Source of the DNA: an uncultured Bacteroidota bacterium
GTDB taxonomy: Bacteria; Bacteroidota; Ignavibacteria; UBA10030; UBA8401
Reading direction: 5' to 3'
DNA: 64,000 nt
NCBI GenBank assembly: GCA_963717445.1
Contig: OY970334.1
Location: forward strand, 965,798-1,029,797
Numbering within the stretch: the first letter of the stretch is position 1; every line of letters starts with the position of its first letter. This document shows positions 4,920 to 44,784 of the stretch, piece after piece. The notes beneath the pieces are model-generated. The model saw nothing but the letters and a program-made list of their open reading frames with translations. It did no database searches and was not told the DNA's origin. The position numbers were made by a program, and so were the translations under genes.

Positions 4920-4984
4920 GATACCTTCCAACTTACGACTTCTTACTGCATACCAACTACCCAACAACCGCTACGCAAAAAAGG

Positions 4985-7990: not shown

Positions 7991-8135
7991 AATTATTCCA
8001 TATCATCTTTCAAGCGACCGCGATGGTTCCATCGTTCCGCCAAACAAACACTTAAGATACAAAAAATCACACTTTTTTGCTCTGTTACTCGCATCATAGA
8101 TATCGAACACAGTTTCCTTCCACAACATTATCCGA

Positions 8136-9545
8136 TCACGTAAATTCAAAATATTTTTTCGCATTGTTGTAACAGATGTCCTTCACAAACGCGCCGACAA
8201 GCCCGACATCGTCCGGGATAATTCCTTCGTCCATCTCCCGGCCAAGGATGTCGCATACCAGACGCCGGAAATACTCGTGCCTGGGATATGAGAGAAAACT
8301 GCGTGAGTCCGTGATCATCCCGACGAACTGGCTGAGTAATCCCATGTTGGAGAGGGCTTCGATTTGCCTTGTTATGCCATCTTTCTGATCGAGGAACCAC
8401 CATGCCGCGCCATATTGCATTTTACCCGGAACGGAACCGTCCTGGAAATTCCCGATCATGGTGGCGTACACTTCGTTATCGCGGGGGTTGACATTATAGA
8501 GGATGGTCTTTGCGAGCTTGCTTTCTTTATCGAGGCGGTCTAGGAGCTTTGCCATCGGCCGGGCGATTGGTTCGTCGCCAATTGAATCGAATCCCGTGTC
8601 GCGACCGAGTGTTCGCATCATTCGCGTATTGGTATTTCTCAATGCGCCGACGTGATATTGCTGAACCCATTTGTATTCACAATTTATGACTCCCAATTCA
8701 TACAGCATGGCCGACTTAAACGCTGCAACCTCGGCTGAATTCAGCGTTTTCTTCTGGAGCAATTTCTTGAAGATTGTTTTGATCTGAGCATCAGTATAGT
8801 CTTCCGCATATATCGTCTCCATACCATGGTCGGACGTTCTGCATCCATGGCGTGCGAAATAATCGAACCGTGAACGAAGGGCATCGAGAAATCGATCAAA
8901 CGATGTAATGTCGAGGTTTGCAGCGCGCGAAAGAGATTTCACATACCCGGCAAATGCCTTGCTGTCTTCAACCGCGAAAGCTTTATCCGGGCGAAATGCG
9001 GGGAACATCCGAGTGCTACCGGAGATTTTCGAATACTGTTCGTGATATTCGAGGGAGTCAATGGGATCATCGGTGGTGCACACCACTTCCACATTCATCT
9101 GTTTTAAAATCCCTTGTGCAAAGAATTGAGGCGTTGCAAGTTTTCGATTGCACTCATCCCAAATGCTCTTCGCGGTCATTGCGTCGAGCAAGCGATCGGA
9201 GATCCCGAACGGGCGCTTCAATTCCATGTGCGTCCAGTGGTAGAGGGGATTCCTGAGCGTCTTGGGAACGGTTTCAGCCCACTTTTGAAACTTGTCCCAA
9301 TCACCTGCGTCTCCTGTTACGAAGCGCTCGTTGACGCCGCTCGCCCTCATTGCGCGCCACTTGTAGTGGTCTCCGTTCAACCAGACTTGTGTCAAGTTCT
9401 CAAACTGCCTATTCTCGGCGATTTCTTTTGGAGAGAGATGACAATGATAATCGATAATCGGCATTGTTTCGGCGTAGTCGTGGTACAGCGTTTCTGCCCT
9501 TTTTGTCTTTAGAAGAAAATTTCTATGAACGAATTCTTTTTTCAT
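8136..9545 (-). CDS. uxaC: Glucuronate isomerase
   Basis: 469 aa. The N-terminal IIDYHCHLSPKEIAENRQFENLTQVWLNGDHYKWRAMRASGV block is the UxaC signature. Confidence 0.85.
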   Translation of the reverse strand: MKKEFVHRNFLLKTKRAETLYHDYAETMPIIDYHCHLSPKEIAENRQFENLTQVWLNGDHYKWRAMRASGVNERFVTGDAGDWDKFQKWAETVPKTLRNPLYHWTHMELKRPFGISDRLLDAMTAKSIWDECNRKLATPQFFAQGILKQMNVEVVCTTDDPIDSLEYHEQYSKISGSTRMFPAFRPDKAFAVEDSKAFAGYVKSLSRAANLDITSFDRFLDALRSRFDYFARHGCRTSDHGMETIYAEDYTDAQIKTIFKKLLQKKTLNSAEVAAFKSAMLYELGVINCEYKWVQQYHVGALRNTNTRMMRTLGRDTGFDSIGDEPIARPMAKLLDRLDKESKLAKTILYNVNPRDNEVYATMIGNFQDGSVPGKMQYGAAWWFLDQKDGITRQIEALSNMGLLSQFVGMITDSRSFLSYPRHEYFRRLVCDILGREMDEGIIPDDVGLVGAFVKDICYNNAKKYFEFT

Positions 9546-10863: not shown

Positions 10864-11105
10864 TGTTTTCCTTTCGAATGCCAGTAAGAAAACCGGACAG
10901 TCAACCGGGGTTTCTCGATTCAAGAAGATGTCGGGCATCTTATCTCAAAAATTGTGCTCAGCTAAAAATTTACTCCGGTCAATTGATGAGATGATCGACA
11001 TCTCGCAAAATACTCTAACGCCATGCTCTTCGAGTGCCAGTCGAGACGACTGACACCCGAAGGAATCATGACCGTTTCAAAACGTTGAACAACTGAACGT
11101 GCAAT

Positions 11106-13130
11106 TTATTTCAACAGCATCATTTTCTTTATAAATATAACTCCCGGCGATGACAATCGGTAGAAATAAATTCCCGATGACATGCTCGACGCGTTGAAAT
11201 TCGCCGTATAGAAGCCCGGCTGCATCACCCCATTGACCAGCGTAGCAACCCTTCTTCCAAGAACATCGAAAATTTCCAGAGTGATTTGGGATGCCTTTGG
11301 AACAGCGTAAGCGATCTGGGTTGAGGGGTTGAACGGGTTCGGATAATTCTGCGCCAACGAGAATTCTTTCGGCAACAGTGATTGAGCATCCGCCACACCC
11401 GTCACCTTGTTTCCCTTGCCGCTGACGGCCACGGAATCCGGTGATCCGAGAGCGTCGTACACCAACTTGATATAGCCGGATTGGCTGCTCGTGTCGGCGG
11501 GTGTAAACGTGATGACGAGATATGCATTGGCTCCAGAGTTGACGGCCACCGATCCAGATGCGGCAGCAAATGCCGAGTTTGATGAAGTGACCGTAAAGTG
11601 GACAGTACCTGGCCCAACATTCGTAAGTTGAATGCTGTCCTTCTTCGATGAAAGAAGGTTCACAGTACCGAATTTAATCTCGTGTCCGGAGACCGTAACA
11701 GGGGTCGTTGTCAGGGTCGGTGTGCCCCAGCGTGGATCGCCAGCGACTATACCATCTGTCGTTGTCATGCTCGCGAGCAATGACGCAGTACCTGCGATAT
11801 TGCAATTCAAAGTATCGAAATAATACTCGACATGCCTCCGGTTGTAGTCATACGTCCAATGCCCCGGAGAATCTTTCGTGAAATTCGGATCGTTGCCATT
11901 TTTTTGTTTCCCATCGCCTCCGAGTGACCGAGGCTCATAGATCCAACGGATCATCTTTGTCATAAGTGGAGGAGTGTTGTTGAGCGTAATGGCGACCTGT
12001 TTGAAACCCTTGGTAGTGTCCTTACCCTGCGCGGCCAACGTTGTGTTCATCCCCCAGGTGAGCCATGGCCCTTCACTTTGATAATAAGGACCGTTCGGGA
12101 GAGGAAGATTTAACATGGCCTGACCTGAATCCGACACCGCATAGTAGTTGTTGGAAATGTTCCATTTTGCGGCGAGGTTTCGATTTGTCAGCACCCATGC
12201 CATTCTCGGCTGCAAGTTGACTGTATCAAGTTCGCCGGGATCGCTGAATTCGACTTGTCGAATGTATGCCGTATCAGCTCCGAGGGCGAAATGGTCGACA
12301 AGCAAGTTGTTCGTTATCTGGAGTATACCTGCGCCCGTCGAGTCAACCCTCCCGAGGGAGAGAAACCCATGGTACGAGACACTATTGACGATGGTGTTAT
12401 GATTAAAAATAAAGTTCTTAATCGGGCCGAGTGTTGACTGGTAATGCCTGACCACTCGGTCTTGCAGGTTGACGAACGTGCAGTTCTCGATATCGCACGT
12501 ATCGACAATATTGTTTCTTAGGTCGATCCCTTTGCCGGCTCCGAAATTGGACGTTCCCTCAAACCCCATGTCTGCGAAGATGGAGTTGGTCACCTTGACG
12601 ACATGCGGTTGTCCGTCTGTTCTAAGCAAATTACCATTGACGGACTTCAAGATGCAGCTATCAACGTAAATGCTGCCGCCGCTGCCGGAGGCGTTCAGGT
12701 CGATGAGACCTCCCTGCAGGTGGTCGAGGTTGGAATCGACCGGTTCGTAGTATCCCGTGATGATAATGTGCTTAAGATAAATAGCGCCACCTGCAAGATT
12801 TGCAAACTCTCCAGGGGGGTTTCCGTTTGTCCCCGGATACAGATAGACCGTAGGATCGTAGTGGCCGCTACTCCCGTACTCACAACGAAAACTGAGGGTC
12901 TTGTTTGCAAATGCAAGTTGCGCGTTGAGGAGATAGACTCCATCTTTCTTTAATACGTAGACGCGTGTTCCGCCCTGAAAAGCGGCGCTTGAGGTGTCCT
13001 GGAAAATCAGCGTGTTGAGATACTGATTTCCCGACCCCACGTAGTCCTGCAAGACTAAATCCTGAGCGAACAAAGCCATCGGAAGCATCAGAACCATCAA
13101 AGCAGGAAAAATGTAACTGAGCTTAAGCAT
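11106..13130 (-). CDS. Secreted right-handed beta-helix protein (pectate-lyase-like fold) with type A T9SS C-terminal sorting domain
   Basis: Signal peptide MLKLSYIFPALMVLMLPMALFAQ (ATG verified at 13128-13130). Repeated N/G/T-rich beta-helix turns. The C-terminus reads LAQNYPNPFNPSTQIAY...GIYFYRL...IKKMMLLK. Confidence 0.6.
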   Translation of the reverse strand: MLKLSYIFPALMVLMLPMALFAQDLVLQDYVGSGNQYLNTLIFQDTSSAAFQGGTRVYVLKKDGVYLLNAQLAFANKTLSFRCEYGSSGHYDPTVYLYPGTNGNPPGEFANLAGGAIYLKHIIITGYYEPVDSNLDHLQGGLIDLNASGSGGSIYVDSCILKSVNGNLLRTDGQPHVVKVTNSIFADMGFEGTSNFGAGKGIDLRNNIVDTCDIENCTFVNLQDRVVRHYQSTLGPIKNFIFNHNTIVNSVSYHGFLSLGRVDSTGAGILQITNNLLVDHFALGADTAYIRQVEFSDPGELDTVNLQPRMAWVLTNRNLAAKWNISNNYYAVSDSGQAMLNLPLPNGPYYQSEGPWLTWGMNTTLAAQGKDTTKGFKQVAITLNNTPPLMTKMIRWIYEPRSLGGDGKQKNGNDPNFTKDSPGHWTYDYNRRHVEYYFDTLNCNIAGTASLLASMTTTDGIVAGDPRWGTPTLTTTPVTVSGHEIKFGTVNLLSSKKDSIQLTNVGPGTVHFTVTSSNSAFAAASGSVAVNSGANAYLVITFTPADTSSQSGYIKLVYDALGSPDSVAVSGKGNKVTGVADAQSLLPKEFSLAQNYPNPFNPSTQIAYAVPKASQITLEIFDVLGRRVATLVNGVMQPGFYTANFNASSMSSGIYFYRLSSPGVIFIKKMMLLK

Positions 13131-13296: not shown

Positions 13297-16200
13297 CTAC
13301 AACGAAACCCTCACTCCGAAGTCCACGGTTACGCCATACAGCTCGGCCGTGCGTGGAATCTGCCAAGAAGTAAAATTATCCTTGAACGACGTTGTCTCCT
13401 GGCGATTGGTGAGATTGTTGACATTGAGAATCAAAGAAAATTTTTCACTCAGTTTCTGCTTCAGCGCGAGATCCAATTTCGTAAATGGGTCGACATAGAC
13501 GTCTGCTTGGCCATCTTGAGAATATGATTGGATGTACTGGCCCTGGAAGAATACCGACACCCGTCCGGAAAATCCACCGATGTCATATCCGAGGGCTACG
13601 TTACCGTAGAAATTGGGCTGGCCTTCCGACTCTCTTTTCAGGTCTATCGCAACATGATGGAATACGCTTGAGATAACCGGATTATTGCGAACATATGTTG
13701 TCTCCGAGGTGGCGATTATTTGGCTTCCAATGATGTAGGTCTCGGATCTCGTGATCGATGCGTTGTACGACAGCGTAATATTGCTGAGGTAGCCGGGAAG
13801 GAAACCAAAATTTATCTGATGCTCGAATTCGAACCCCCATGCGTACGAGGTTTTATCCGAATTGTATGGCATGGTCAGGATATGAATTGAGCGCTGACTG
13901 ATGATTGAAGCGAACGGCGCTGTAGTCTGCCACGTCAACCCCATCTTTTGAAACAATGAATCAACCCCATCGATGCTCACGTTGTTCATCTCATGATAGA
14001 GATTGTCGATGACTTTGTAGAACCCGGAGACGGATATGAGACCGATCGTATTGCTGTACACCTGAGTGTTCAATTCGTAATTCCATGCTTTTGTATCCTT
14101 CAGATTAGGATTACCGAGATCGAATATCTCACCGCCGGCTCCGGAGATATTGAAAGAAGGGAGACGGAAATTAAAATCTGGTCTGGCCAACGCCTTGTAG
14201 GCAGCAGCCCGTATTGTCAAGAAATCTGTCGGCGTGACCGACATCTGAGCATTCGGAAGCCAGATGGTTTCAGAATAATGGGTCGTAGAATCCTGGAGCG
14301 GTTGAGGCGTGATCTGCTGTATCCCGATTGTCGAAATTGCACCGTCGGTGAATTTTGCGCCATAGTCGTCCGATTCTTGCTCAAGGCGTACACCGGCGAT
14401 CAGGGTCATCGCCTGACCAATGTTGAATGTGTTCATGAGATATCCTGCGCTTACTCTCTCCTGCACGTTGTAGTCGCCGAGCTCAGCCAGCGCACTCGGA
14501 CCGAATTCGGGGGAACCGCTCACTGTCGCATTTTTCACCAACTGGTACCAGAGTTTTAAAGCATCCACATTGATGAGGGGCGTCATCTTGTACAAACCGA
14601 GAAGGTTGCGGGACGGGGCCGGATAATCGACGAAATCCGATAACGAGGGAGACGAAGATGATCGATTGTAGTAATAGTTTGCAAAACGGCTCGATTCCAA
14701 CATTGTCGTGTCGACGCCGATCGTTGAAAACCCATGGAGGTAGTTGTTGTCATCGAGTTCTTCCTTATTCATCCATCGCGTTCCATCTCTGTACTTTGCT
14801 CCCATTTTCAAATCGCCTGAGAGCTGGTCAAACAATGAGTATGTTTTTGTGACGTTGACGTAAGCGGTTCTCTCTTTATCGAAGTTATTTTGCTGATAAT
14901 AGACAGAGGTAGAGCAAGCGGCGGCCGAAAAGTTATTGAGAGCATAAGGAATGATGTTAAGTTCCGGGTGGTCGTGGCCGGAAGGAACTCCTCCCGGAAC
15001 CACTCCCGGCGTTTCTGTAAACTTCATCGCGAAATCGTACGGATTGTCAACGCGCGATTCGGCGTACGAAGCGCTCCAGTCAACATCGAACCCGCCGAGA
15101 AAATTTTTCCCCTGCAGGGCGGCATTGTCGGTGCTCGTCGTGAGCTCAGTGTAACGGTAGTTATAGTCCCAGGAACCGCCTCCACCCGTAACACCTGGAT
15201 ACACCCGGTCATAGAGCATGATATTTCTGCCGGTGCTGCTGTAGAGTCCGGATAACTTTACCGATCCACTGTCGGGCGTGTTGACGTCGAAGATCGCTTG
15301 ACCGCCATTCCTCGTCCTCACCTCATCAGTGAAATCGACTGTAAAGGGAGCCATTTCGTAATCGACGTTCCACGGCGAAGTGGGATTGTTAATGGGCTTG
15401 TAGTACGCATAACTGTATGTGATATCCTCTTTGCTCCTAATCTTTCTCTCGGTATTGCCCTGTAGCTGCACACCGAGAACATCATCCAAAAACCTCTCGC
15501 CGTACCGACCAGTGATGTCGTACTGTCTCGCCGAATTCATTAGACGATTATAGTCCCCCATGAGATCAAAAACGATTTCCCGCTCCGAAGGAGCTTTCCG
15601 GGTCACCAGATTAATAGAGCCGGCGATCGCGTCTCCATCCTGGTCGGGTGTGAGGGTTTTGTGAAGCTCAATGCCAGCAAGTTCTCCCTGCGAGATGGTG
15701 CTGAGGTCAACATCTCTCGATGTGGAATCGGTCGACGGTATCTTTACTCCATCCACAGTAATGTTGCTGAATCTCGAGCTGAGGCCCCGAAGGACGACTT
15801 TGGTCGCTTCACCGCCCGATCGAATCAGCGAGACTCCCGGCAAGCGGCCAATCGCCTCAGCCGCATTCGCGTCGGGCAGCTCCTTGATCTTCTCTTCCGA
15901 AACGACATTGACAATGGTTTTGGAGGAAACCTGCTCATTAATTGCCGCAACTTGGCCGCGCATTTGCGCAGTGATCACGACCGCCTGCCTCTGCAGTATT
16001 ATCTGGCTGAGACGCACGTTCAACTGTACTTCGTTCTTCGTAGAGAAATCCACTTCGGCGTATTTCGTTTCGTATCCTATGCACGATACTTTAACCGTGA
16101 AGGAGCGATGCGGAATCGCAGTAATACGGTATTCTCCTTCGATATCCGTTGAAGAGCCGAGCGACGTCCCTTCGAGAATGACATTGATTCCGATGAGCTT

Positions 16201-16314
16201 CTCATTCGTCAGGGAATCCGTTACCACGCCCTGCAGCGTCGACTGCCCAAAAGCGACGAGAGGCATTAACGATAAAGCTAAGGCGATGAGCTTTAATGCG
16301 GGAAGTATTTTCAT
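13297..16314 (-). CDS. TonB-dependent outer-membrane receptor (CarboxypepD_reg + plug + barrel)
   Basis: Signal peptide MKILPALKLIALALSLMPLVAFGQ (ATG verified 16312-16314). Plug-domain blocks DANAAEAIGRLPGVSLIR and TKVVLRGLSS are present, followed by a ~800 aa barrel. No SusD-like gene follows it. Confidence 0.8.
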   Translation of the reverse strand: MKILPALKLIALALSLMPLVAFGQSTLQGVVTDSLTNEKLIGINVILEGTSLGSSTDIEGEYRITAIPHRSFTVKVSCIGYETKYAEVDFSTKNEVQLNVRLSQIILQRQAVVITAQMRGQVAAINEQVSSKTIVNVVSEEKIKELPDANAAEAIGRLPGVSLIRSGGEATKVVLRGLSSRFSNITVDGVKIPSTDSTSRDVDLSTISQGELAGIELHKTLTPDQDGDAIAGSINLVTRKAPSEREIVFDLMGDYNRLMNSARQYDITGRYGERFLDDVLGVQLQGNTERKIRSKEDITYSYAYYKPINNPTSPWNVDYEMAPFTVDFTDEVRTRNGGQAIFDVNTPDSGSVKLSGLYSSTGRNIMLYDRVYPGVTGGGGSWDYNYRYTELTTSTDNAALQGKNFLGGFDVDWSASYAESRVDNPYDFAMKFTETPGVVPGGVPSGHDHPELNIIPYALNNFSAAACSTSVYYQQNNFDKERTAYVNVTKTYSLFDQLSGDLKMGAKYRDGTRWMNKEELDDNNYLHGFSTIGVDTTMLESSRFANYYYNRSSSSPSLSDFVDYPAPSRNLLGLYKMTPLINVDALKLWYQLVKNATVSGSPEFGPSALAELGDYNVQERVSAGYLMNTFNIGQAMTLIAGVRLEQESDDYGAKFTDGAISTIGIQQITPQPLQDSTTHYSETIWLPNAQMSVTPTDFLTIRAAAYKALARPDFNFRLPSFNISGAGGEIFDLGNPNLKDTKAWNYELNTQVYSNTIGLISVSGFYKVIDNLYHEMNNVSIDGVDSLFQKMGLTWQTTAPFASIISQRSIHILTMPYNSDKTSYAWGFEFEHQINFGFLPGYLSNITLSYNASITRSETYIIGSQIIATSETTYVRNNPVISSVFHHVAIDLKRESEGQPNFYGNVALGYDIGGFSGRVSVFFQGQYIQSYSQDGQADVYVDPFTKLDLALKQKLSEKFSLILNVNNLTNRQETTSFKDNFTSWQIPRTAELYGVTVDFGVRVSL

Positions 16315-16406
16315 AGTGCTCTCCGTAAAAGTATTGGCGCCAATCTGTAGAGCGCCAACGATAAGGTGAATTGATGATAACTCTCCTCCTCGCCTCTTAT
16401 CTTCCA

Positions 16407-17963
16407 TCACTTCAAAAGAATCATTTTCTTTACTATCACGGTTTCGTTTGTCTCCAAACGATAGAAATAGATGCCGCTTGGAAAGTCACGGCTTGAAAAA
16501 ATCACTTCATGAACTCCCGCAACCTGACGTTCTTTTGCGAGCATTGCAACCTTTTGTCCCAACTCATTAAATACCTCGAGTGTTACATAACTGTTCACTG
16601 GCAACTGATAACTGATTATCGTGCTTGGATTGAACGGGTTGGGAAAATTCTGCGACAGAGATGGCGAACGGGGCGACATCATCTGCCGGTCGTTCGAGAC
16701 ACGAGTCACATAGTCCGATTCAAATGCGCCAAGATCGGGAGCGCTCCCGTTGAACGGCAACCCGACGTTGGTACCTGCATCGATCAGGTCGCTCCCCTCG
16801 GCAAGATGCATAAAAAGGATATCCGGCAAACTTCCATCCGGCTTGCGCGGCCCGGTAACTCCGGCAGTATCCAGACTCACAAAATCCGTGTCTGTCACTG
16901 AAAACGGAGGCAGCCAACTGTTCGTCGCCTGCACGGCGCTTGCCAGCACTGAAACCCCGCCCGTCCCCGCCGAGATACAGTTCTTGATCGTGAGGATTGA
17001 GCCGGTCTTCAGCGCTTCGTTGATGTGGTAATTTGTCCCGTTCCTGTAGCCGGTACAGTTCAGGAGCGTCATCGATCCTCGGTTGTTATTCTGGTCGAAT
17101 CCTTTCACGCGATTGTCGAAGGCGAGACAATTTATCAATGTCATGTTGTGGCGGAGACTATCGGCATTGGAGTTGTCGCCTCCACCCATTTTGAAGCCGT
17201 TGCCGTTGCCGACGCTCGCCGCACCGCTCTTGAGATATCCGTTGTGAAATGTCCAACACATTTCAAAGGTCGTGAAGACGCTGTCCGAGGGACGCAAATA
17301 TCCGTCGCAACCGTCATCTGAATTTTGCCAGGAGCGGCAGCCATAGAAATAATTGTTGGTACCCACGTCAAGCTTTGGAGCAAAACCATCGGCGTTTCCT
17401 TGGCTTGGGTCGGCATTATAGTAGGAATCGCAATTGATGACCCGGTTGTTCGAAGCTCCGCCCCCCAATTGGAGCCCGGTATCTTCGTTTTCGCTGAACG
17501 AACAGTTCTCGATAATATTGTTCGAGCCGCTGATGATCATGCCGTTATCGCCAGCCCTCCAAATATCGAACCCTTTGATGTACCAGTAATTCTTGCTAAG
17601 GTTGATGCCCCTGTTGCTGCCGGAAATCGCCATGGCGCTGAAATCAAGGAATGGCCGCTCCCCGGGATATGCAAAGAGATAGTACATTGCACTGCTTGTT
17701 CCGCTCTTCGGGGTATTGATAGTGCTCGTCAATGAGTATGTACCCCCGCGGACGTACACCGTATCCCCAGCATGCATAATGGACAAAGCTTTGGTGATCG
17801 TCTGCAATGGTGCGTCAATGGTGCCGGCACTCGTATCACTCCCCGAAATTGAAACGTAGAGTTGAGCCTCCATGATATTGAGCATCAGAAGCAAGGCAAT
17901 ACCGACAATAGCGGATCGGGTCGCCAGCAAACTCATCCCCGTTTTTCCACGCGTTGGTTTCAT
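16407..17963 (-). CDS. Pectate-lyase-like beta-helix protein (DUF1565 / PL9-like N-terminus) with type A T9SS C-terminal domain
   Basis: N-terminal TIDAPLQTITKALSIMHAGDTVYVRGGTYS is followed by beta-helix NxxxxN repeats. The C-terminus reads LSQNFPNPFNPSTIISY...GIYFYRL...VKKMILLK. It overlaps the downstream TonB receptor by 4 nt. Confidence 0.6.
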   Translation of the reverse strand: MKPTRGKTGMSLLATRSAIVGIALLLMLNIMEAQLYVSISGSDTSAGTIDAPLQTITKALSIMHAGDTVYVRGGTYSLTSTINTPKSGTSSAMYYLFAYPGERPFLDFSAMAISGSNRGINLSKNYWYIKGFDIWRAGDNGMIISGSNNIIENCSFSENEDTGLQLGGGASNNRVINCDSYYNADPSQGNADGFAPKLDVGTNNYFYGCRSWQNSDDGCDGYLRPSDSVFTTFEMCWTFHNGYLKSGAASVGNGNGFKMGGGDNSNADSLRHNMTLINCLAFDNRVKGFDQNNNRGSMTLLNCTGYRNGTNYHINEALKTGSILTIKNCISAGTGGVSVLASAVQATNSWLPPFSVTDTDFVSLDTAGVTGPRKPDGSLPDILFMHLAEGSDLIDAGTNVGLPFNGSAPDLGAFESDYVTRVSNDRQMMSPRSPSLSQNFPNPFNPSTIISYQLPVNSYVTLEVFNELGQKVAMLAKERQVAGVHEVIFSSRDFPSGIYFYRLETNETVIVKKMILLK

Positions 17964-18138: not shown

Positions 18139-18165
18139 TAATCGTTTACTTTATCGGTAACGTAA
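18139..18165 (-). promoter_or_regulatory. Conserved upstream motif, copy 1 (TAATCGTTTACTTTATCGGTAACGTAA), ~175 bp upstream of the PL9-like / TonB receptor / beta-helix operon
   Basis: Direct sequence identity with the copies at 20623-20649 and 44742-44775. All three lie upstream of minus-strand transcription units for secreted pectinolytic or T9SS proteins. Confidence 0.45.
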
Positions 18166-18244
18166 TATCGTGCAAGAATCTCCTGCGCGTGCCCGGTTTC
18201 CGGACATAACCCCTATTATTGATGATTACACCAATACGACCCCG

Positions 18245-18283
18245 TCGCTCGCAAGAATTAGTTAGGTCAATTCTTGCGAGCGA
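18245..18283 (-). terminator. Perfect 15-bp stem / 9-nt loop hairpin downstream of the 18342..20516 gene
   Basis: TCGCTCGCAAGAATT-agttaggtc-AATTCTTGCGAGCGA lies 60 nt past the stop codon. Confidence 0.45.
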
Positions 18284-18341
18284 ACGTCGGGCGCAAACGA
18301 CTGTCTCGCACCCAGAAGCGACCGACCCGATAGTCGAGCTG

Positions 18342-20516
18342 CTACTTCATCAACATCATTTTTTTCACTTCATCTCTGCTCATCGAATGAAGCACATAAA
18401 AATAAGTCCCACTCGGGAGGTTTCTTGCGTCGAAGGTAACGGTGTAGATCTGGTTCGGCTGCGCGACTTGGCTGAACAAGGTTGCGACTTCCTGTCCAAC
18501 AACATTGTATATTTTCAGCGTCGTGCGTTCAGCATTCTTCGCCGCAAAGCTGAATTTCGTGCTCGGATTGAATGGATTAGGATAGTTCTGCGAAAGTGCA
18601 AAATCTTTTGCACTCAATGTCGTGGTTACCTCCACTGCATTGCTGTACGTAAACCTTCCGTCATGATCAATCTGTTTTAGGCGGTACGAATACGTACTTG
18701 CCGCTGAGTTTACATCGGAGAAACTATAACTATGCGCCACATTGGATGTCCCGGCACCATCGACAAATCCTATCTTCGCCCAAGAGCCATTACTATTTTT
18801 CTGGACTTCAAAGCCGCTGTTGTTGATTTCGGAGGCTGTTGTCCATGCCAATTCTACGTTGCGCCCATTTGCCGAACCGGTAAATGAAGTGAGCTCGACG
18901 GGAAGAACATATGTTAGGTTTTCATCTGCACCAATGTACGGATATGTGGCATTCCTTGTATCGCCATCAATATCTGTCGTAATTCCTGAAATTGGCGTGC
19001 CAATGTAGTTTGTATTTACAGCGCTTAAATTTAGATGCAGATCTTCTGAACCAGCCGTTGTACTGAGAAAATCAGTTGGAAATTGATGTGAATTTGGATC
19101 CATACTTGCGACAAAGCCACCTCCCGTGGTAGCACCTTGCAGATTACTCAATGTTTGATAATCTGTTGAGGCAGGACTAAAACTACTACCGGTACCTGCG
19201 GTATAGACCGTCCCACTCGCCGCACAATCAAAATTGTTGTAATTTGAAGCAGTAACGGTTCCATTATTGAAGTACGCGCAATAACTCTTCACGTTAGCGT
19301 TTGAATAGGTATTCTTTAGAATATTATTCTTCATTGTGACTGATGTTGGCGACCCGGTAAAGTAACAACAACCGTTGTTATAATAATAAGTACTAGTTGT
19401 CGTTGTAATGAACACAGAATTGAAATATACATTGTAAACTCCAACCCCATTAACATAGATACCCATAATACGAGTACTAGCAGTATAGCCCGGGGTGAGA
19501 CCACCGCCGTCACCAATTGCGTAAACCATATTGTTATATACCTTCATCACTTCTGAAGCGGTGTTGCACGAAAGGTACATACCCGCAGCATATGTGCTAG
19601 CGACCGTACTATTATTATTTATATCATGGAGTTTGTTATTGTATACATTGATAGTACCATAGCCATATCTTATATATATTGCATAGGCGTTTCTTGCAGT
19701 CGTGCCGCTATAAGTAGCATTTCTGACTTCACAACCAAAAATAGATAGCCCGGTTTGATATTGACCACTTATACCATAGACATCGGCATCAGCTGATCCC
19801 CCCCCGATATTATTCGACAATGCTGAACCTACCACACAATTTTCAACCGTGCAATTAGCGTCAAGAACTGTTGTCGCTTGACCTTTCAAATAAATGCCAT
19901 ACCAGCAATTTGCTACGGTAATGTTATTGTAGGTATTAGTGGAGTTGAGAGCGCTCGCATTGCCATTTGTCTGATTAACACCATAAGTGACGTTGGTATT
20001 GGAACTGCTTAATGTAACAGTGCAATTTTTTATTGTGTTATTTTGCGATCCAGTAGTGGCATTATTTGCAATATAGTACCCATATTCCATCAGTTGGGTC
20101 GCCCCAGAGTTTATTCCATTTTCCTGAAGATCTATCCCATCAAAGGTAATGTAGCTTACGCCGTTGATTTTTATGATATAGTCTGAAGTACCAGTACCTG
20201 TCCCGGCGGTTATGAGCGGGTTTGCCCCTGATCCTGTTTTCTTAAAAAGTATAGGATTCCCCGATGTTCCCGTTGCCGTAATATTTCCAGCAGTTGGTGA
20301 TCCAAAAGTTTCTGTCCAATTATCAGGGACATCAAATTCGACCCCACCACTTCCAACGCCAGAAGTATTTAATGCGGTGATTGCCGCAGCAATGCTTGTG
20401 TAATCACCACCACTACTCGCAATTGTTTTGATCCCAGTTAGTTGTGCGTTGGTGATTGATACTCCTATGCACAGAATCAGAACGATTGCAAAGAGAAAAT
20501 GCAACATTGTTTTCAT
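18342..20516 (-). CDS. Large secreted N/T/S/G/Y-rich beta-helix-like protein with type A T9SS C-terminal domain; unknown function
   Basis: It has a signal peptide. Near the C-terminus there is an LPVELTSFTGSANGRNVELAWTTASEINNSGFEVQ domain and then LSQNYPNPFNPSTKFSF...GTYFYVL...VKKMMLMK. The gene is markedly AT-rich, about 38-40% GC against ~52-58% for its neighbours by my eye estimate. Confidence 0.6.
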   Translation of the reverse strand: MKTMLHFLFAIVLILCIGVSITNAQLTGIKTIASSGGDYTSIAAAITALNTSGVGSGGVEFDVPDNWTETFGSPTAGNITATGTSGNPILFKKTGSGANPLITAGTGTGTSDYIIKINGVSYITFDGIDLQENGINSGATQLMEYGYYIANNATTGSQNNTIKNCTVTLSSSNTNVTYGVNQTNGNASALNSTNTYNNITVANCWYGIYLKGQATTVLDANCTVENCVVGSALSNNIGGGSADADVYGISGQYQTGLSIFGCEVRNATYSGTTARNAYAIYIRYGYGTINVYNNKLHDINNNSTVASTYAAGMYLSCNTASEVMKVYNNMVYAIGDGGGLTPGYTASTRIMGIYVNGVGVYNVYFNSVFITTTTSTYYYNNGCCYFTGSPTSVTMKNNILKNTYSNANVKSYCAYFNNGTVTASNYNNFDCAASGTVYTAGTGSSFSPASTDYQTLSNLQGATTGGGFVASMDPNSHQFPTDFLSTTAGSEDLHLNLSAVNTNYIGTPISGITTDIDGDTRNATYPYIGADENLTYVLPVELTSFTGSANGRNVELAWTTASEINNSGFEVQKNSNGSWAKIGFVDGAGTSNVAHSYSFSDVNSAASTYSYRLKQIDHDGRFTYSNAVEVTTTLSAKDFALSQNYPNPFNPSTKFSFAAKNAERTTLKIYNVVGQEVATLFSQVAQPNQIYTVTFDARNLPSGTYFYVLHSMSRDEVKKMMLMK

Positions 20517-20622
20517 AACAATCCTCCTTCGACTAAGTAAAAATATTGTTGATTAGCAAAACACTTTCGTAATTCCACACACTTCTTTTGCGATAACCTA
20601 AGATGCTCCAACTTCCTTTCCA

Positions 20623-20649
20623 TAATCGTTTACTTTACCGGTAACTTAA
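20623..20649 (-). promoter_or_regulatory. Conserved upstream motif, copy 2 (TAATCGTTTACTTTACCGGTAACTTAA), ~110 bp upstream of the low-GC T9SS protein gene
   Basis: A 22/23-nt match to copy 1. It sits between a terminator-like palindrome (20673-20693) and the start codon at 20516. Confidence 0.45.
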
Positions 20650-20670
20650 AATAGACAAACAAATATCACA

Positions 20671-20693
20671 CCGGTTCGACAATTGTCGAAACC
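20671..20693 (-). terminator. Near-perfect palindrome GGTTCGACAA|TTGTCGAA(A)CC immediately after the stop of the 1277-aa gene, followed on the transcribed strand by a T-rich tract
   Basis: Read directly. On the minus strand the hairpin is followed by ...TATTTGTTTGTCTATTTT. Confidence 0.45.
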
Positions 20694-23600
20694 TACTTAA
20701 GCAACATCATCTTCTTTACTGCAACAAAATCTCCAGCATGGATCCGGTAAAAATAGACCCCCGATGCTCGACCGTCCTGGGTGGAAAAGGTCACGGTGTA
20801 GCTCCCCGGCTGCTGCATCTTGTTGACAAGCGTCGCCACTTCCCGCCCCAGCACATCGTAGACAATAAGTGAAACCCTGCTCGCCTTCGGCAACTGATAA
20901 AATATCTTTGTCGAAGGGTTGAAGGGGTTGGGATAATTCTGCGCCAGGCTGTATTCTTTTGGAATGTTGGAAAGCTCGTCCTCGACCGACGTGATCGCGC
21001 CCAATTTCCCTATCGCGAAATAACCGAAGCTTGTTATGCCTGCACGAGAGAGTGTGTACGGTTGAGTAGTGAATTGATAGGAATAGATTCCCGTTCCAAC
21101 CTCAGCGGTATCCGGAAGGTGCACAATCAGATCATTTGTTGTCCGACTCGCTGCGAACGTCGTGTCCTCTTGCGACGCCATCCAGCCGAATTGAAGTGTC
21201 GCATTGCTGCCGCCCGGAGTCTTTTCGGTGATGTCCCATTTCAGCTTCACACGACCGTTGCCGCTCCTCGTCCCTCCGACAGAATCTGGAACAACGGACA
21301 CAGAAAAGGTGTCGACGGTCCCAGCATTCGTGATCCAGACGGGAGAATACGCAGCCGCAGTCCCGACGGGGAAAAGTGTTTGGGCCGCGCCGACTCCATA
21401 CCGTGTTACGCTTCCACCGCTGTCTGTCGCAATATACCGGAATGTCGATGCGCCGTTGATCGCGACTGCTGCCAGATTCTTCGATCCGACAAAAAATTTT
21501 CCTACGGTCAGCGCAAGAGTTCCGTTGACTGTCGTTTTTGAAGAAAGTCTCACCCCAAGTGTGTCGCTGATCGTGAGATTATTTACGGTATCCGGAAGAA
21601 GTACGCCGGTTTTTTGAGGAGCAAGGCCGTCGAAAGTATAGTTCGCGCTCTTGCTCAGCGTCTTCACACCCATGGTGGCCAGAGAACTGTCCAACCCGTT
21701 CACATGGCCCGATTCCAGCGTTGCCCCGGGCGAGAGCGTGAACGTTCCGGTTCCACCCAGCACGCTCGTGCCCATGGTGAGAGTTGTGCCGCCGCTGACT
21801 TCAAGCGGAAGTCCCCCTCCGCCGTATGTCACGTTCGAGAGCGTCAACGTCTGACTGCCGGCTTTTGCGAAGACAAGCTTCGCAAATCCGCCACGCGTGG
21901 TCAGCGTCGAATTGGCTGTCGTCGCATTAGAGAGAGAAAGATTCCCTGCGTATAAACACCAGACAGTGTTCCCGGATCCAGCCTGGTTCCCCTCGCTGAT
22001 TGAGAAATTGCCGCCGGTAACTGAAACGTTTCCGAAATGATACACGCTGTCGCTCGTAGCAAGGCTAGTTCCCTGCACTCCAAAATTACCCCCTTGCACA
22101 ATGACGTCGCCGTTAATCGTCAGCGCACTGTTAGAATTGCCGAAAAGGTACACTTGCCCGGTATTGGTATTAACCACTTTGAAATACCCGCCAAGAGTGT
22201 CTCCTCCAAAACCGAGAATCGTGTTCGCAGTTTGGTTGGGGCAATTCCATTCGACATTGTAGAAATTCTGATTTGTCCCGCCGGCGAACGAGGTCGCACC
22301 CCTGATCCCGCTGATACGTAGAAGCGATCCGTTGCTCCATGTTGCTGTCGGGATCGTGCCGCCGTTCTGAGCATGTTCATACATCCCACCGTTACCGACA
22401 ACAAGCGTAGCTCCGGTAGCGAGCGTTAGAGTTCCGGCGTTCACGAGAGAGCCGAGGACTGTAAGGTCCGTCCCCGTCCCGTCCGCGACAACGAGCGTTT
22501 TCGCCGAATCGATTTTCAGCGTTCCGCCCGTGTTCACCGTAATTTGATCCGCATACTCGCTGTCGGAGACGTCAACGGTGTGGCCGGTTTGAATAGAAAT
22601 GATACTATCGCTCGCACTCGGGGCGACCGGTGCCGGGTAAACCCAAATTGTTCCGTTGTTCCGCTCCCATGTGTTTACATCCGACCAAAGGCCCGACTGA
22701 TGCGAACGATAGTCTCCGTCTCCCGCAACGAACCCGGTAAAATTACCGACGGCAAAAGCACCGAATGCCGTGATGCCGCCGCGCGCAACGGTGTACGGCG
22801 CCGTGGCGAGCTGCGAGGTATAACTTCCTGTGCCGACTTGTGTCGTATCCGACAAGCGAAAGATTTTCGCATTCCCGGCGCGGTCCACAGAGAAGATCGG
22901 ATCTTCCAGAGAGGAAACCCAACCGAACTTTAGCGCGGCATTACTCCCGCCTTGAGTATTTTCAGCGATGTTCCATTCCACTTTTACTCTCCCCCCTCCA
23001 TTTTTTGTTCCCCCCAGAGTATCCAAAACTACACCAGCGGTGATTGTGTCGACCGTGCCTGTGTTTGTGATCCAGAACGGTGCGTACCCTCCCGATATGC
23101 CGACGGGGAAACCTATCTGCGAGGATCCAACACTGTTCACCCTGAGCGTACCGCCGCTGTCCGTCGCGACGTAACTGTTCGTAGATCCCCCCGCCGTAGA
23201 ATTTGCAATGATATTCTTTGTGCCGATTTCCAAAATGCCGTTGGTGAGCGTAAGTGTGCCGTTGATGGTATCGGACTTCGGGAGTGTGACACCTGCGGGA
23301 TTATTGATCGTGAGATTCTTGACAGTCGTCGGCATTAACGAGCCCATCACCTGCGCAGCCATCCCGTTGAATGTGTAGCTTGCTGCACTGCTAAGCGTCT
23401 TAACACCCGTATTTGAAAGCGTGCTGTCCAACCCTCCGGTGTGTCCAGATTCGAGCGTCGCCCCTGTGTCGAGAACAAAAGTCCCGGAGCCACCAAGAAC
23501 ACTTGTCCCCATAGTTAGCGTTGAAACCTTGCTGACTTCTACCGGGCAGCCGCCTGCAAACGCTACTCCAGAGAGGGTCATCGTCTGTTTGCCCGCCTTC

Positions 23601-24526
23601 GCGAAAACAAATTTCGCACCGGCTGCATTTGAGTTCTGAGTCGTTGCGTTTGACATCGAGAAATTGCCGTAGAGGTTCCAAACAGCCGTCCCGGTTCCTC
23701 CTTGGCTCCCGCGCGAGACTGAGAAGTTCGTGTAAGAGTTGTTTGCCGGATTTCCAGTGACAGTAATGTTGCCCGCCACATTGATGATAATAGTAGTTCC
23801 TGCATTGCTTGTACCGTTCGATGTAACGCCGACAAGCGCCGATGAGGTTGAGGCGCTACCATCGACGGTCAGATTGCCGCCGATGTTCACCGTATCCGAT
23901 ACGCCGGAGGCGTTGGGCGCGCACAATTGCCACCTCCCTGACCCAGTGTTCTGCACCGTGATGTTGCCGGCAATATTCAAAGTGCCCCCCGCTGTGTTCC
24001 ATCCGAGGTTCAAGTTACCAGACCATGAGGGGCAATTGACCGTCAAGTTGTAAAACGCCTGAGTCGCATTAAGTCCAGTTGTCGAACTCGTGATGCCGGT
24101 GATCAAACACGTTGAGCCCGTTTTCCACGTTGCCGTAGGAATACCTTGTCCGGAGTTTGACGGATGTGCAAACTCGTACGTTGCCCCGCTATCTACCGTT
24201 ATCGAGCCAGAGACCACGTTGATGTACGCCTGATCTTTTACGTATCCATTGACAACGATTGCCGATTTTCTGAGAGTGTCAGGATTTCCGGCAGTCAACG
24301 TCACTATGTGCCCGTCCTGGATTGTAATCGTGCCTGCATTACTATCCGGAGGAGCAACAGCCGCATTCCAGGCAGAACCATCAAAGGTCTGCCACGTCGC
24401 CGCGACATTCCAATTACCCGATCCCGAAGATCGAAAGTCTCCCGCGACTTGACCTAAAGCCGGCATCGCTGCACAAAGAATGACAACGAATGTCAATCCT
24501 GCCAGAAAAGTAAAATTCGTTTTCAT
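20693..24526 (-). CDS. 1277-aa secreted protein built from an internally duplicated ~550-600 aa module, with type A T9SS C-terminal domain; unknown function
   Basis: Module 1 starts GDFRSSGSGNWNVAATWQTFDGSAWNAA and module 2 starts GDGDYRSHQSGLWSDVNTWERNNGTIW. The two modules are collinear, for example KFVFAKAGKQTMTLSGV against KLVFAKAGSQTLTLSNV. The C-terminus reads LAQNYPNPFNPSTKIFY...GVYFYRI...VKKMMLLK. Confidence 0.65.
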   Translation of the reverse strand: MKTNFTFLAGLTFVVILCAAMPALGQVAGDFRSSGSGNWNVAATWQTFDGSAWNAAVAPPDSNAGTITIQDGHIVTLTAGNPDTLRKSAIVVNGYVKDQAYINVVSGSITVDSGATYEFAHPSNSGQGIPTATWKTGSTCLITGITSSTTGLNATQAFYNLTVNCPSWSGNLNLGWNTAGGTLNIAGNITVQNTGSGRWQLCAPNASGVSDTVNIGGNLTVDGSASTSSALVGVTSNGTSNAGTTIIINVAGNITVTGNPANNSYTNFSVSRGSQGGTGTAVWNLYGNFSMSNATTQNSNAAGAKFVFAKAGKQTMTLSGVAFAGGCPVEVSKVSTLTMGTSVLGGSGTFVLDTGATLESGHTGGLDSTLSNTGVKTLSSAASYTFNGMAAQVMGSLMPTTVKNLTINNPAGVTLPKSDTINGTLTLTNGILEIGTKNIIANSTAGGSTNSYVATDSGGTLRVNSVGSSQIGFPVGISGGYAPFWITNTGTVDTITAGVVLDTLGGTKNGGGRVKVEWNIAENTQGGSNAALKFGWVSSLEDPIFSVDRAGNAKIFRLSDTTQVGTGSYTSQLATAPYTVARGGITAFGAFAVGNFTGFVAGDGDYRSHQSGLWSDVNTWERNNGTIWVYPAPVAPSASDSIISIQTGHTVDVSDSEYADQITVNTGGTLKIDSAKTLVVADGTGTDLTVLGSLVNAGTLTLATGATLVVGNGGMYEHAQNGGTIPTATWSNGSLLRISGIRGATSFAGGTNQNFYNVEWNCPNQTANTILGFGGDTLGGYFKVVNTNTGQVYLFGNSNSALTINGDVIVQGGNFGVQGTSLATSDSVYHFGNVSVTGGNFSISEGNQAGSGNTVWCLYAGNLSLSNATTANSTLTTRGGFAKLVFAKAGSQTLTLSNVTYGGGGLPLEVSGGTTLTMGTSVLGGTGTFTLSPGATLESGHVNGLDSSLATMGVKTLSKSANYTFDGLAPQKTGVLLPDTVNNLTISDTLGVRLSSKTTVNGTLALTVGKFFVGSKNLAAVAINGASTFRYIATDSGGSVTRYGVGAAQTLFPVGTAAAYSPVWITNAGTVDTFSVSVVPDSVGGTRSGNGRVKLKWDITEKTPGGSNATLQFGWMASQEDTTFAASRTTNDLIVHLPDTAEVGTGIYSYQFTTQPYTLSRAGITSFGYFAIGKLGAITSVEDELSNIPKEYSLAQNYPNPFNPSTKIFYQLPKASRVSLIVYDVLGREVATLVNKMQQPGSYTVTFSTQDGRASGVYFYRIHAGDFVAVKKMMLLK

Positions 24527-24582
24527 GTCGATGCTCCTTCTTGTCTGGTGTGTGTTTTTTTGCGTTTTAAGTTCTAAGTTAT

Positions 24583-24645
24583 ACGTTTTACGTTTTACGC
24601 TTTACGTCTTACGTCTTACGTATAACATATAACGTACAACGTAAA
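24583..24645. repeat. In-phase heptanucleotide tandem array (ACGTNNN)x9
   Basis: Read directly: ACGTTTT ACGTTTT ACGCTTT ACGTCTT ACGTCTT ACGTATA ACATATA ACGTACA ACGTAAA. It ends 1 nt before the stop codon of the CE8 gene and lies upstream of the 1277-aa gene, whose start is at 24526. Confidence 0.85.
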
Positions 24646-24646
24646 A

Positions 24647-25933
24647 CTATCCAGTAGTAAAATGCCACGTCGGGCCTCGAAGCGTATCGGCCCCGTCAAT
24701 CTCGTCGATCCGCCAATAATATGTCGTATGTGCGCTAAGCCCCACAGCTTCGAATGAAGCAAGCTTCTGATTTTTCATGAACAACGGAGCTGCTTCCTTC
24801 CCGAAATAAACGTCGTGCGATTCTGCGTTCCGCGCCGGAATCCATCGCAGACTGACTTCCGTCCCTTCCACATCATAAGCTGCATCACGTGGAAATGGGA
24901 AAGCGACATTGGCAAGAACTGAGGGCATTTCTGCTTCAGGATTCCATCTGCTTCCGAACGTCCATTCTGCAGTTACTTGCGCAGGAGTCGGAGAACCCTC
25001 CGCAGTTGAAAGGTTGTCCTTGAACCAGGCAAAATCTCCCCCCTCGCGATGACAGTTGTAAAAGTAATGACGGGATCCCCAAACCCAAGGCACCAGGTTC
25101 GGAGAATTGAGCGGCGCATAGATCGGCTCGTCTGCCATGTTCCTTGAAAAAATGCAGTCAAGCAAATAGAATTGCGCGTCGCGGTGATGGCGACCCAACG
25201 GAAATCCGGGAACGCCGTCAAATTGAGAATACCTGATAACAAACTTCTGGTCCTTGTTTGAACTCCCGTCGTGCCAGATGCTCGCACTTAGGTTGTGGCC
25301 GTAAAACCGGCTATCGGTGATGTAACACCATCCACGAGGGCAGACAAAATCGACCCATCCCTCGAAGTAACAGTTTGCATGGTAGTACATACCTTCCGCG
25401 CGGTTCCACAAACTCATCGTGTCGCCGCCGTCGGCGATCACGTTGCAGTTCAGAAAAATTATGCGTGTCGCATTGAAGCCGCGAACTGCAAATTGGTGCT
25501 CGTGGTTACCGTAGAGACTTCCGTAATTGTTGTACACGGTAAGATTCGCCATGGTGATGTCCGTTACCCCATTTCCGATATTGACAACCGCCGAACCCCA
25601 ATCGGCACTGTCGAAACTTCCCTCACGATGGTTGTTGGGAATTTTCGTCCAATTCGCACGTAACTCCGCGTACACAATGCGGGTGCTGTCCCTCTCTTCG
25701 CCGACAAGGGCAATATTGCTTTTTGTTATAAAGAGCTTCTCCTTATAAATGCCTTTCTTAATGAGGATGATGATCAGCTGCTCGGCGTTTTGGGGGACCG
25801 AATTCAGCGCTTCCTGAATGGAGTGAAACTGACCTGTTCCGTCCTGCGCGACAACGATATCCGCACGTTCGGTGGCCGTTACATAAACGCGACCGGCAAA
25901 GAAAAAGAACACCGCTAGAAAAACTCGTTTCAT
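24647..25933 (-). CDS. Pectinesterase (carbohydrate esterase family 8)
   Basis: Signal peptide MKRVFLAVFFFFAG (ATG verified 25931-25933). Contains IVVAQDGTGQFHSIQEAL, the classic pectin methylesterase N-terminal block, then beta-helix repeats. Confidence 0.75.
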   Translation of the reverse strand: MKRVFLAVFFFFAGRVYVTATERADIVVAQDGTGQFHSIQEALNSVPQNAEQLIIILIKKGIYKEKLFITKSNIALVGEERDSTRIVYAELRANWTKIPNNHREGSFDSADWGSAVVNIGNGVTDITMANLTVYNNYGSLYGNHEHQFAVRGFNATRIIFLNCNVIADGGDTMSLWNRAEGMYYHANCYFEGWVDFVCPRGWCYITDSRFYGHNLSASIWHDGSSNKDQKFVIRYSQFDGVPGFPLGRHHRDAQFYLLDCIFSRNMADEPIYAPLNSPNLVPWVWGSRHYFYNCHREGGDFAWFKDNLSTAEGSPTPAQVTAEWTFGSRWNPEAEMPSVLANVAFPFPRDAAYDVEGTEVSLRWIPARNAESHDVYFGKEAAPLFMKNQKLASFEAVGLSAHTTYYWRIDEIDGADTLRGPTWHFTTG

Positions 25934-37611: not shown

Positions 37612-37615
37612 CCGA

Positions 37616-44439: not shown

Positions 44440-44741
44440 TGATTGTCACTCTCACGCTGTACCAAGGTTCATTAGGCCTGTTGCTTAATGGTAAAAAATG
44501 AATCTTTATGATTTGCTTTGTGGGATCGGGACCCGCTCGTTGTGGAGATGAATGAGTCGCGCTTACATTACTATTATAGGCTGCCCCATATAGTAGCTAC
44601 TATGTTGAGAATTGTGATGTAGGCTGGAGCATCTCCCTATGAGCAATACAGAATGATTTTACTACGCTATGACTGCCGGACAACTCGCGAAAAAGAGAAT
44701 ATTGAGGGTTTCGATGAAAGTTTTGGAAATTATGGGCAAAC

Positions 44742-44784
44742 TTTACTTTATCGTTTACTTTACCGTTTACTTGCTTGGCAAGCA
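44742..44784 (-). promoter_or_regulatory. Conserved upstream motif, tandem degenerate copies (TTTACTTTATCG TTTACTTTACCG TTTACTTGC) followed by the palindrome TGCTTGGCAAGCA, ~300 bp upstream of the GH28 gene at the head of the 24.6-44.4 kb gene array
   Basis: Read directly from the sequence. It shares the ATCGTTTACTTTACCG core with copies 1 and 2. Confidence 0.4.

Follow-up and report, generated by a model that had tools for sequence, protein, structure and literature searches.

The pectin locus and its candidate regulator gene

The DNA analysed here is a stretch of 64,000 nucleotides from an uncultured Bacteroidota bacterium (GenBank assembly GCA_963717445.1, contig OY970334.1, positions 965,798 to 1,029,797 of the forward strand), referred to as the window throughout, and the element under study is a short repeated motif upstream of its pectin genes, which we interpret as the probable operator of a LacI-family repressor. 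Positions 1240-44439 of the window form a single minus-strand cluster of pectin and hexuronate genes. The degrading enzymes encoded there are two GH28 proteins, a pectinesterase, a GH88 enzyme, a GDSL esterase, a Pel9A-like lyase and a PelZ-like lyase, accompanied by several proteins with C-terminal sorting domains of the type IX secretion system (T9SS). The genes related to the outer membrane code for two SusC-like TonB-dependent receptors as well as PorV-like and PorZ-like proteins, and those for catabolism and transport for DUF4861, UxaC, KduI, a major facilitator superfamily (MFS) transporter, KduD and KdgK.

The candidate repressor is encoded at 29338-30405 (minus strand), inside the operon headed by the third motif copy, and carries a LacI helix-turn-helix domain and Peripla_BP_1/3 domains (Pfam PF00356, PF00532 and PF13377). 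The solved structures nearest to it are those of CcpA (E = 4e-47) and PurR (1e-40), and the hinge motif P-N-[FY]-x-A-R-N-L (ARNL, with the hinge leucine) is invariant across seven LacI orthologues; none of the NCBIfam equivalog cut-offs was reached. Judged from its sequence, the protein is a canonical member of the LacI family. It was the sole transcription factor detected by Pfam between 1240 and 45822, the scan having been run up to the endonuclease III gene (45163-45822), and the same analysis revealed no sigma or anti-sigma gene in the cluster.

Motif copies in the window

The 22-mer AATCGTTTACTTTAYCGGTAAC has exact plus-strand matches at 18140-18161 and 20624-20645 and a third occurrence, with 3 mismatches, at 44749-44770. 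The first-pass annotation of this DNA had reported two near-identical copies and a third, tandem one, and had judged a motif of this kind unlikely to arise by chance. Both statements hold, with no match to the 22-mer in 100 dinucleotide-preserving shuffles of the sequence. A weight matrix trained exclusively on sites of other genomes scored the copies at 36.6, 40.5 and 39.9 bits, respectively, as compared with a top score of 12.8 bits among shuffles. The next-best scores in the window were 13.4 and 11.3 bits, both of them phase-shifted readings of copy 3, followed by 9.6 bits, and no fourth site above shuffle level was found in the 64 kb with this matrix.

All three copies are intergenic and oriented along the downstream minus-strand pectin genes. 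Copy 1 (18139-18161, minus strand) reads G TTACCGATAA AG TAAACGATTA, comprising two 12-bp units, and is located 177 nt upstream of the start codon of the gene for a Pel9A-like T9SS pectate lyase (16407-17963), which overlaps a TonB-dependent receptor gene (13297-16410). Copy 2 (20623-20647, minus strand) reads AG TTACCGGTAA AG TAAACGATTA and lies 108 nt upstream of the gene for a 724-aa T9SS-tailed protein (18342-20516); for these two copies, the distances agree with the 110-180 bp given earlier. Copy 3 (44741-44771, minus strand) reads AG TAAACGGTAA AG TAAACGATAA AG TAAAG, corresponding to 2.5 units, and was delimited by Tandem Repeats Finder as a tandem at 44742-44772 with a period of 12 and 2.6 copies. 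It is situated about 300 nt from the start of the gene at 42829-44439, at the head of the GH28-to-pectinesterase operon (44439 down to 24647).

Pattern and matrix scans detected no site above shuffle level in front of the DUF4861, UxaC and KduI blocks, and the gaps preceding the DUF4861-UxaC and KduI blocks (10938-11106 and 7990-8136) are devoid of an operator. This leaves read-through from the copy 1 promoter as a possible source of transcription for the catabolic genes, or else a different mode of control. Relatives carry sites of their own at DUF4861, MFS transporter, UxaA and KDPG (2-keto-3-deoxy-6-phosphogluconate) aldolase genes.

Conservation at orthologous loci

Related loci, designated by L numbers, were collected by two routes, one starting from the motif and the other from the LacI protein. 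Scanning the pattern CGTTTACTTTAYCGKTWAC over 185,579 species genomes returned 108 loci. The chance expectation for a 35-bit pattern in 596 Gb is about 35 (an estimate), against the 108 seen, with AT-rich taxa involved. About three quarters of the loci were chance or coding matches in unrelated taxa, recognised by the absence of flank similarity and by covering open reading frames (ORFs), and were discarded. About 25 loci shared the flanks TTAA GTwAmCGrTAAAGTAAACG At and came from metagenome-assembled genomes (MAGs) labelled Ignavibacteria, Ignavibacteriales, Melioribacteraceae or Bacteroidota. They represent orthologous pectin loci by tblastn, with identities of 67-76% for the GH28 protein, 73-85% for the TonB-dependent receptor (39849-42869), 87% for a 747-aa protein, up to 89% for the 724-aa T9SS protein and up to 81% for a 1277-aa T9SS protein.

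The genes located 3' of the motif in these relatives include the GH28 operon and those for TonB-dependent receptors, T9SS cargo, pectinesterase, the Pel9A-like lyase, altronate dehydratase, KDPG aldolase and LacI itself. LacI orthologues (46-68% identity) occur within 8 kb of the motif in L010, L018, L043, L053, L058, L084 and L104, and in L010 and L104, both Melioribacteraceae MAGs, the site lies directly upstream of the orthologue. In L058, the Pel9A orthologue carries the motif behind TTGACA-N17-TAAGTT, while L051 contains AG TTACCGATAA AG TAAACGATTA, with flanks like those of copy 2, downstream of an orthologue of the 1277-aa T9SS protein (81% identity). The motif is kept between genomes whose proteins share 45-60% identity. 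Among the 106 genes that a Pfam census covered in seven long motif-bearing loci, LacI was the one regulator family that every locus had; the LacI orthologues of motif-bearing loci are 46-90% identical.

A second set of 80 metagenome loci (800 kb, 9% of it intergenic by crude gene calls) was fetched solely by means of relatives of the LacI protein (50-90% identity). The two-unit pattern TWANCGRTWAAGTWANCGRTWA, with up to 3 mismatches allowed, gave 53 matches in this set, 47 of them intergenic, as against 0.46 +/- 0.73 matches in dinucleotide shuffles of the intergenic DNA. The externally trained matrix (at least 16 bits) yielded 23 site clusters, where shuffles would lead one to expect about 0.1; 22 of these were intergenic, and all were on the LacI strand. 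Among 32 intergenic clusters, 27 pointed along the next gene, 3 lay between divergent genes and 2 at contig ends, with none oriented against the neighbouring gene. The next gene encoded the LacI orthologue in 12 cases and a TonB-dependent receptor in six; other targets were genes for GH88, GDSL esterase, DUF4861, MFS transporter, PelZ-like lyase, altronate dehydratase, KDPG aldolase and BD-FAE esterase. Iterative refinement of a weight matrix on these loci drifted to generic AT-rich sequence (from 41 to 134 matches) and was given up for fixed patterns and the externally trained matrix.

Some matches to the search pattern fell inside coding sequences (L016, L029, L034, L050, L067 and L101; L013, L022, L033, L089 and L107). 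The exact matches in Bacteroidia and Flavobacteriia trace back to two conserved coding sequences (e.g. ...LDVTDKVNE...), so that what they show is conservation of the protein; the operator has nothing to do with them.

Anatomy of the site

The full consensus is AG TwAnCGrTAA AG TAAnCGrTwA AG(TwA), a head-to-tail repeat of 12 bp with the unit consensus AGTwAnCGrTwA and two to three units per site. Conservation extends to flanks that were outside the constraint of the search pattern, namely an AG at -2/-1 (A 0.82, G 0.88) and another AG at +22/+23 (0.64 each), followed by T.A. Similarity between sites ends within 2-5 nt of the motif. The family measures 22-34 bp in length and has no flanking repeat. 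In the two central CG steps, the frequency of C is 0.93-0.97 and that of G is 0.90. When the site is shifted by 12 against itself, the identity amounts to 0.61, against a background of about 0.25-0.3; dyad scores reach 0.57 and 0.49 for the CG steps of the two units and 0.54 where the units join.

The left half of every unit has the form AGTwAnC|G, which we take to match the generic LacI-family half-site TGnAAnC|G (G at 5.5 and A at 2.5-3.5 from the dyad), a pattern familiar from the operators of CcpA, PurR and LacI. The outer G is missing from the right half, its place being taken by the AG of the following unit. The bare pair of boxes, AGTWA-N7-AGTWA, had 42 intergenic matches versus 6 coding ones, with 41 of the 42 on the LacI strand. 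In L157, four AGTwA boxes follow one another in 12-bp phase, and only the first unit retains the CG.

Promoters and position of the sites

The GH28 operon is preceded by a sigma-70-type promoter at 44781-44809 (minus strand), consisting of TTGACA (44809-44804), a 17-nt spacer and TATGCT (44786-44781). It scored 10 out of 12 matches in a promoter scan, which gave no support for an extended -10 element (TGn), and operator copy 3 begins 10 nt past its -10 hexamer. Alignment of the GH28 upstream region in six genomes (the window, L004, L011, L073, L076 and L094) showed that conservation is confined to an A-tract, the promoter TTGACA-N17-TATnnT and the operator; the spacer motif CTTTTGTAT is kept in all six, together with the -35 box and the A-tract upstream of it. 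No conserved block was detectable in the leader of about 300 nt in this alignment, and the idea of a conserved RNA within it was therefore rejected. The leader between operator and GH28 start (44440-44740 in the window) measures 247-300 nt in the six genomes and has almost no sequence in common besides a short TCCTC patch.

A TTGACA box with no more than 1 mismatch stands within 40 nt upstream of 31 among 54 accepted sites. It is separated from the operator by 25-28 nt at 21 sites, by 21 nt at 4 and by 34 nt at another 4, which means that 25 of the 54 operators start 21-28 nt past it. These gaps place the operator over the stretch between the -10 box and about +30, including the transcription start, a classic position for a repressor. 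In the majority of sites, a separate -10 hexamer precedes the motif by 2-5 nt or by 11 nt, and the offset of the motif from TTGACA ranges over 21-35 nt. At the promoters with a 21-nt gap (L005, L058, L060 and L078), the first unit overlaps the -10 hexamer itself, which argues against a role purely at the RNA level.

Promoters are less clear at the other two copies of the window, which lack a convincing -35 box within 40 nt. For copy 2, a tentative candidate lies at 20662-20689 (minus strand; TCGACA, a 16-nt spacer and GATATT; 9 out of 12 in the scan, with a TG before the -10). The operator would begin about 16 nt past its -10 hexamer; this candidate is not conserved in L051. The best candidate for copy 1 is a weak TTGCAC-N16-TAAAGT. 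The leader behind copy 2 also contains a 35-aa ORF that overlaps the main start codon; it is not conserved in L051 and was dismissed.

A probable local repressor and its regulon

We hold with high confidence that the motif has an operator role, and the data on co-occurrence suggest that it serves a local pectin/hexuronate regulon, most probably with the LacI-family product of 29338-30405 as its repressor. That this particular protein is the binder is considered likely. Our confidence here is below that for the operator role, since a head-to-tail architecture would also be open to another protein or to non-canonical binding. The first-pass annotation had offered a LacI-family operator or an element for an alternative sigma factor or other regulator. 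The former option is backed by the conservation of the motif at orthologous pectin genes, by its position at sigma-70-type promoters and by its enrichment near LacI orthologues that had been fetched independently of it, including the 12 cases in which it stands directly upstream of them. The same annotation had pictured a regulon of secreted enzymes. Such enzymes are indeed among the targets, but the regulon appears from the distribution of sites to span TonB-dependent receptors, cytoplasmic hexuronate catabolism and the repressor gene in addition to the T9SS enzymes.

In the proposed mechanism, the repressor would sit on its sites when no inducer is present and block either the binding of RNA polymerase or promoter escape. 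The units kept silent in this way would be the GH28-to-pectinesterase operon, the gene for the 724-aa T9SS protein and the unit comprising the Pel9A-like lyase, the TonB-dependent receptor and a T9SS protein. Since the repressor gene is part of the copy 3 operon, negative autoregulation would follow, and a pectin-derived sugar acid would release the repressor. Binding by the LacI protein, the number of dimers per site, the inducer and the operon boundaries are points of inference.

Several observations weigh against this interpretation. Over +/-8 positions, the dyad scores (0.49-0.57) stay below the self-identity at shift 12 (0.61). Symmetry is confined to the inner 10-bp palindrome TwAnCGnTwA, which falls short of the 16-22 nt of a textbook LacI palindrome, and the AG preceding each unit is conserved on one strand only. 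At some sites (e.g. L157 and L153), the AGTwA boxes are kept while the CG is lost. A strong site was present in the fetched flanks of only 12 of the 37 LacI-orthologue loci of at least 10 kb; in the window itself, the nearest site is 14 kb upstream of the LacI gene and would have fallen outside the 10-kb flanks fetched for the relatives. The uncertain promoters of copies 1 and 2 belong here as well, as does the fact that the link between LacI and the sites is drawn from co-localisation and conservation. From the geometry of LacI-family complexes, two dimers centred 12 bp apart should clash. In a survey of the family, an overlap at ~13 bp was placed within the zone of specific contacts, and dimers so spaced were stated to be unable to interact (PMC4052901).

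A rival explanation is a different regulator encoded elsewhere in the genome, such as a response-regulator-type protein or another oligomer that reads head-to-tail repeats, with the LacI gene being just one of its targets. The excess of direct-repeat character over dyad symmetry, the strict orientation of the sites relative to the gene, the persistence of the AGTwA boxes in 12-bp phase where the CG has gone, the AG pairs at -2/-1 and +22/+23 that break the palindrome, and the many LacI-orthologue loci without a site in the fetched flanks would all be in keeping with such a protein. We nevertheless regard it as unlikely, given that no second transcription factor family recurs in the loci, that the left half of the unit fits a LacI-family half-site and most sites have the central CG, that a place downstream of the -10 suits a repressor and not a typical direct-repeat activator, and that overlapping LacI-family sites ~13 bp apart are on record (PMC4052901). 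The motif might alternatively be a promoter element, either the site of an alternative or extracytoplasmic function (ECF) sigma factor or a reiteration of -10-like hexamers (TAAAGT) that would act on the polymerase itself, for instance in sigma-dependent pausing. Its unit junction (TAAAGT or TAAGTT) does resemble a -10 hexamer, it always runs along transcription, and in L005, L058, L060 and L078 it stands 17 nt past TTGACA, exactly at the -10 place. This explanation is very improbable, as most sites follow a separate -10 hexamer at a varying offset (21-35 nt from TTGACA), no sigma or anti-sigma gene is found in the locus, and a general polymerase signal leaves both the conserved CG steps and the regulon-specific distribution unexplained. 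The alternative-sigma option of the first-pass annotation falls for the same reason, the motif being downstream of a conserved TTGACA-N17-TAnnnT promoter at variable offset.

The strict orientation, together with the circumstance that most of the motif would be transcribed from the mapped promoters, would also suit an element that acts as RNA, that is, a conserved 5' leader element, protein-bound or structured. The odds of this are poorer still: the folding of copies 1 and 2 does not surpass that of shuffles (z = +1.5 to +1.6), there is no Rfam match at gathering score in the window, the first unit falls on the -10 box and hence outside the transcript at the promoters with a 21-nt gap, and start codons lie anywhere between 0 and about 300 nt away, depending on the locus. 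A dispersed repeat, such as a fragment of a repetitive extragenic palindromic (REP) sequence or of a miniature inverted-repeat transposable element (MITE), or a chance similarity without regulatory role could be suspected because the exact 19-mer pattern also matches unrelated genomes and coding regions across many phyla. These matches share no flanks, as expected of a pattern of this information content in a database of this size, and the family proper is short, intergenic only and tied to a specific set of pectin genes, without a flanking repeat; the three window copies in 64 kb are all upstream of pectin genes, 47 of the 53 matches in related loci are intergenic, and 0 of the 32 clusters opposes its neighbour gene. 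Both possibilities are contradicted by these data and can be practically dismissed.

If the LacI-family protein is indeed the repressor, the LacI repressors of this clade might read arrays of direct-repeat half-sites (AGTwA once per 12 bp, two to four per promoter, along transcription) and not one palindrome. We put this forward as a speculation that is rather doubtful at present. Were it true, it would imply non-canonical binding by asymmetric dimers, by alternating registers or by a cooperative head-to-tail oligomer, and the system could provide a clean natural model for the unexplained LacI-family sites spaced by ~13 bp. The analysis yields a regulon map, open to testing, of how an uncultured, Ignavibacteria-like lineage uses pectin, and in practical terms the 26-nt consensus AG TwAnCGrTAA AG TAAnCGrTwA AG can be used for annotating pectin regulons in related MAGs.

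Neighbouring elements

Terminator-like hairpins had been described in front of copies 1 and 2. The first of them, a hairpin at 18245-18282 that follows the gene for the 724-aa protein, is strong (17-bp stem, -37 kcal/mol in context, z = -5.6) and lacks a U-tract; it represents either a terminator without U-tract or a transcript-stabilising structure. The counterpart near copy 2 makes a weak hairpin. It is a perfect 16-bp palindrome, TTCGACAATTGTCGAA, at 20675-20690, directly after the stop codon of 20693-24526, which folds as RNA no better than shuffles (z = -1.3). This palindrome overlaps the best -35-like hexamer of the next gene and could be a site for another protein.

A heptamer array said to share the core of the motif occupies 24558-24647. 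It is a period-7 microsatellite (TTTTACG x9, then ACGTATA x4) that takes up the interval from the pectinesterase stop to the beginning of the gene for the 1277-aa T9SS protein. The array neither matches the motif core within 3 mismatches nor scores with the weight matrix and is absent at the same gene junction in L057; it was thus rejected as a fourth operator and is treated as a separate element. In a promoter or leader region, a repeat of this type could vary in length through slippage.

At 36574-42869, the PorV-like protein and the 747-aa protein (weakly similar to the C-terminus of PorZ; 87% identity in relatives) adjoin a SusC-like TonB-dependent receptor, and Pfam detected no SusD-like partner in this interval. 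The arrangement hints at T9SS accessory proteins dedicated to a substrate-specific locus. In the hexuronate block, a Lar_N-like protein and a PdxB-like 2-hydroxyacid dehydrogenase (with DUF3410) are encoded at 2507-4967. Related loci have the tagaturonate epimerase UxaE in place of this pair, which may represent an alternative pathway step. Near the right end of the window, a gene at 62801-63931 codes for an IS110-family transposase (DEDD_Tnp_IS110 and Transposase_20).

Comparison with known systems

No description of the motif or of a pectin regulon in Ignavibacteria or Melioribacter was found in the literature searched. Apart from its 12-bp head-to-tail layout, which poses a small but real puzzle as to how LacI-family dimers are accommodated at overlapping sites, the system conforms to a standard repressor/operator arrangement. 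A precedent for flexible site architecture is CytR of Escherichia coli, a LacI-family member that tolerates direct or inverted half-sites with flexible spacing. CytR acts as an anti-activator with CRP, and its octamers are unrelated to the motif of the window; no CRP-like partner site came to light here, where no search was aimed at one.

In a survey of 1,303 LacI-family factors, the binding motifs were palindromes of even length (16-22 nt) and usually centred on CG, and autoregulation was seen in 72% of the factors (Ravcheev et al. 2014, PMC4052901). The present system resembles the local sugar regulons of the LacI/GalR type described there in that a LacI-family gene is embedded in a catabolic locus, the sites have a central CG and lie in promoter regions, the repressor would regulate itself, and several sites per regulon are conserved at orthologous loci. 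It differs from the surveyed palindromes in that symmetry is limited to the inner 10 bp of each 12-bp unit, and from the surveyed sites in that the units are arranged head to tail, with a strand-specific AG between them, and always run along the gene. The distances to the start codon in the window (108, 177 and ~300 nt) can be set against the usual place of LacI-family operators, 30-140 nt before it and in overlap with the promoter.

The same survey noted overlapping LacI-family sites ~13 bp apart at 110 operons, which were held to be real but hard to square with structures (PMC4052901). As at the gntKU operon, where E. coli GntR is an example of such sites by the description in that paper, two CG-centred sites with overlapping contact zones are kept within an orthologous group, and their binding mode is structurally unexplained. 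In contrast to the GntR-type overlaps so described, the spacing is 12 and not 13 bp, the array can reach a third or fourth half-site, and the overlap is apparently the rule of the regulon.

With regard to regulon content alone, the closest likeness is to the Bacteroides regulators KdgR (BT0487) and UxaR (BT0824), which belong to the same superphylum and for which a LacI-family control of hexuronate use is predicted (Ravcheev et al. 2013, PMC3878776). Their predicted targets are uxaA, uxaB, uxaC, kdgK, kdgA and a few extracellular enzymes, in keeping with glucuronate and galacturonate catabolism; L018, L143 and L148 similarly set the motif and a LacI gene next to uxaC, uxaA and uxaB. Whereas the polysaccharide loci of Bacteroides are mostly governed by hybrid two-component systems, one LacI-type regulon seems here to span T9SS-secreted enzymes, receptors and catabolism.

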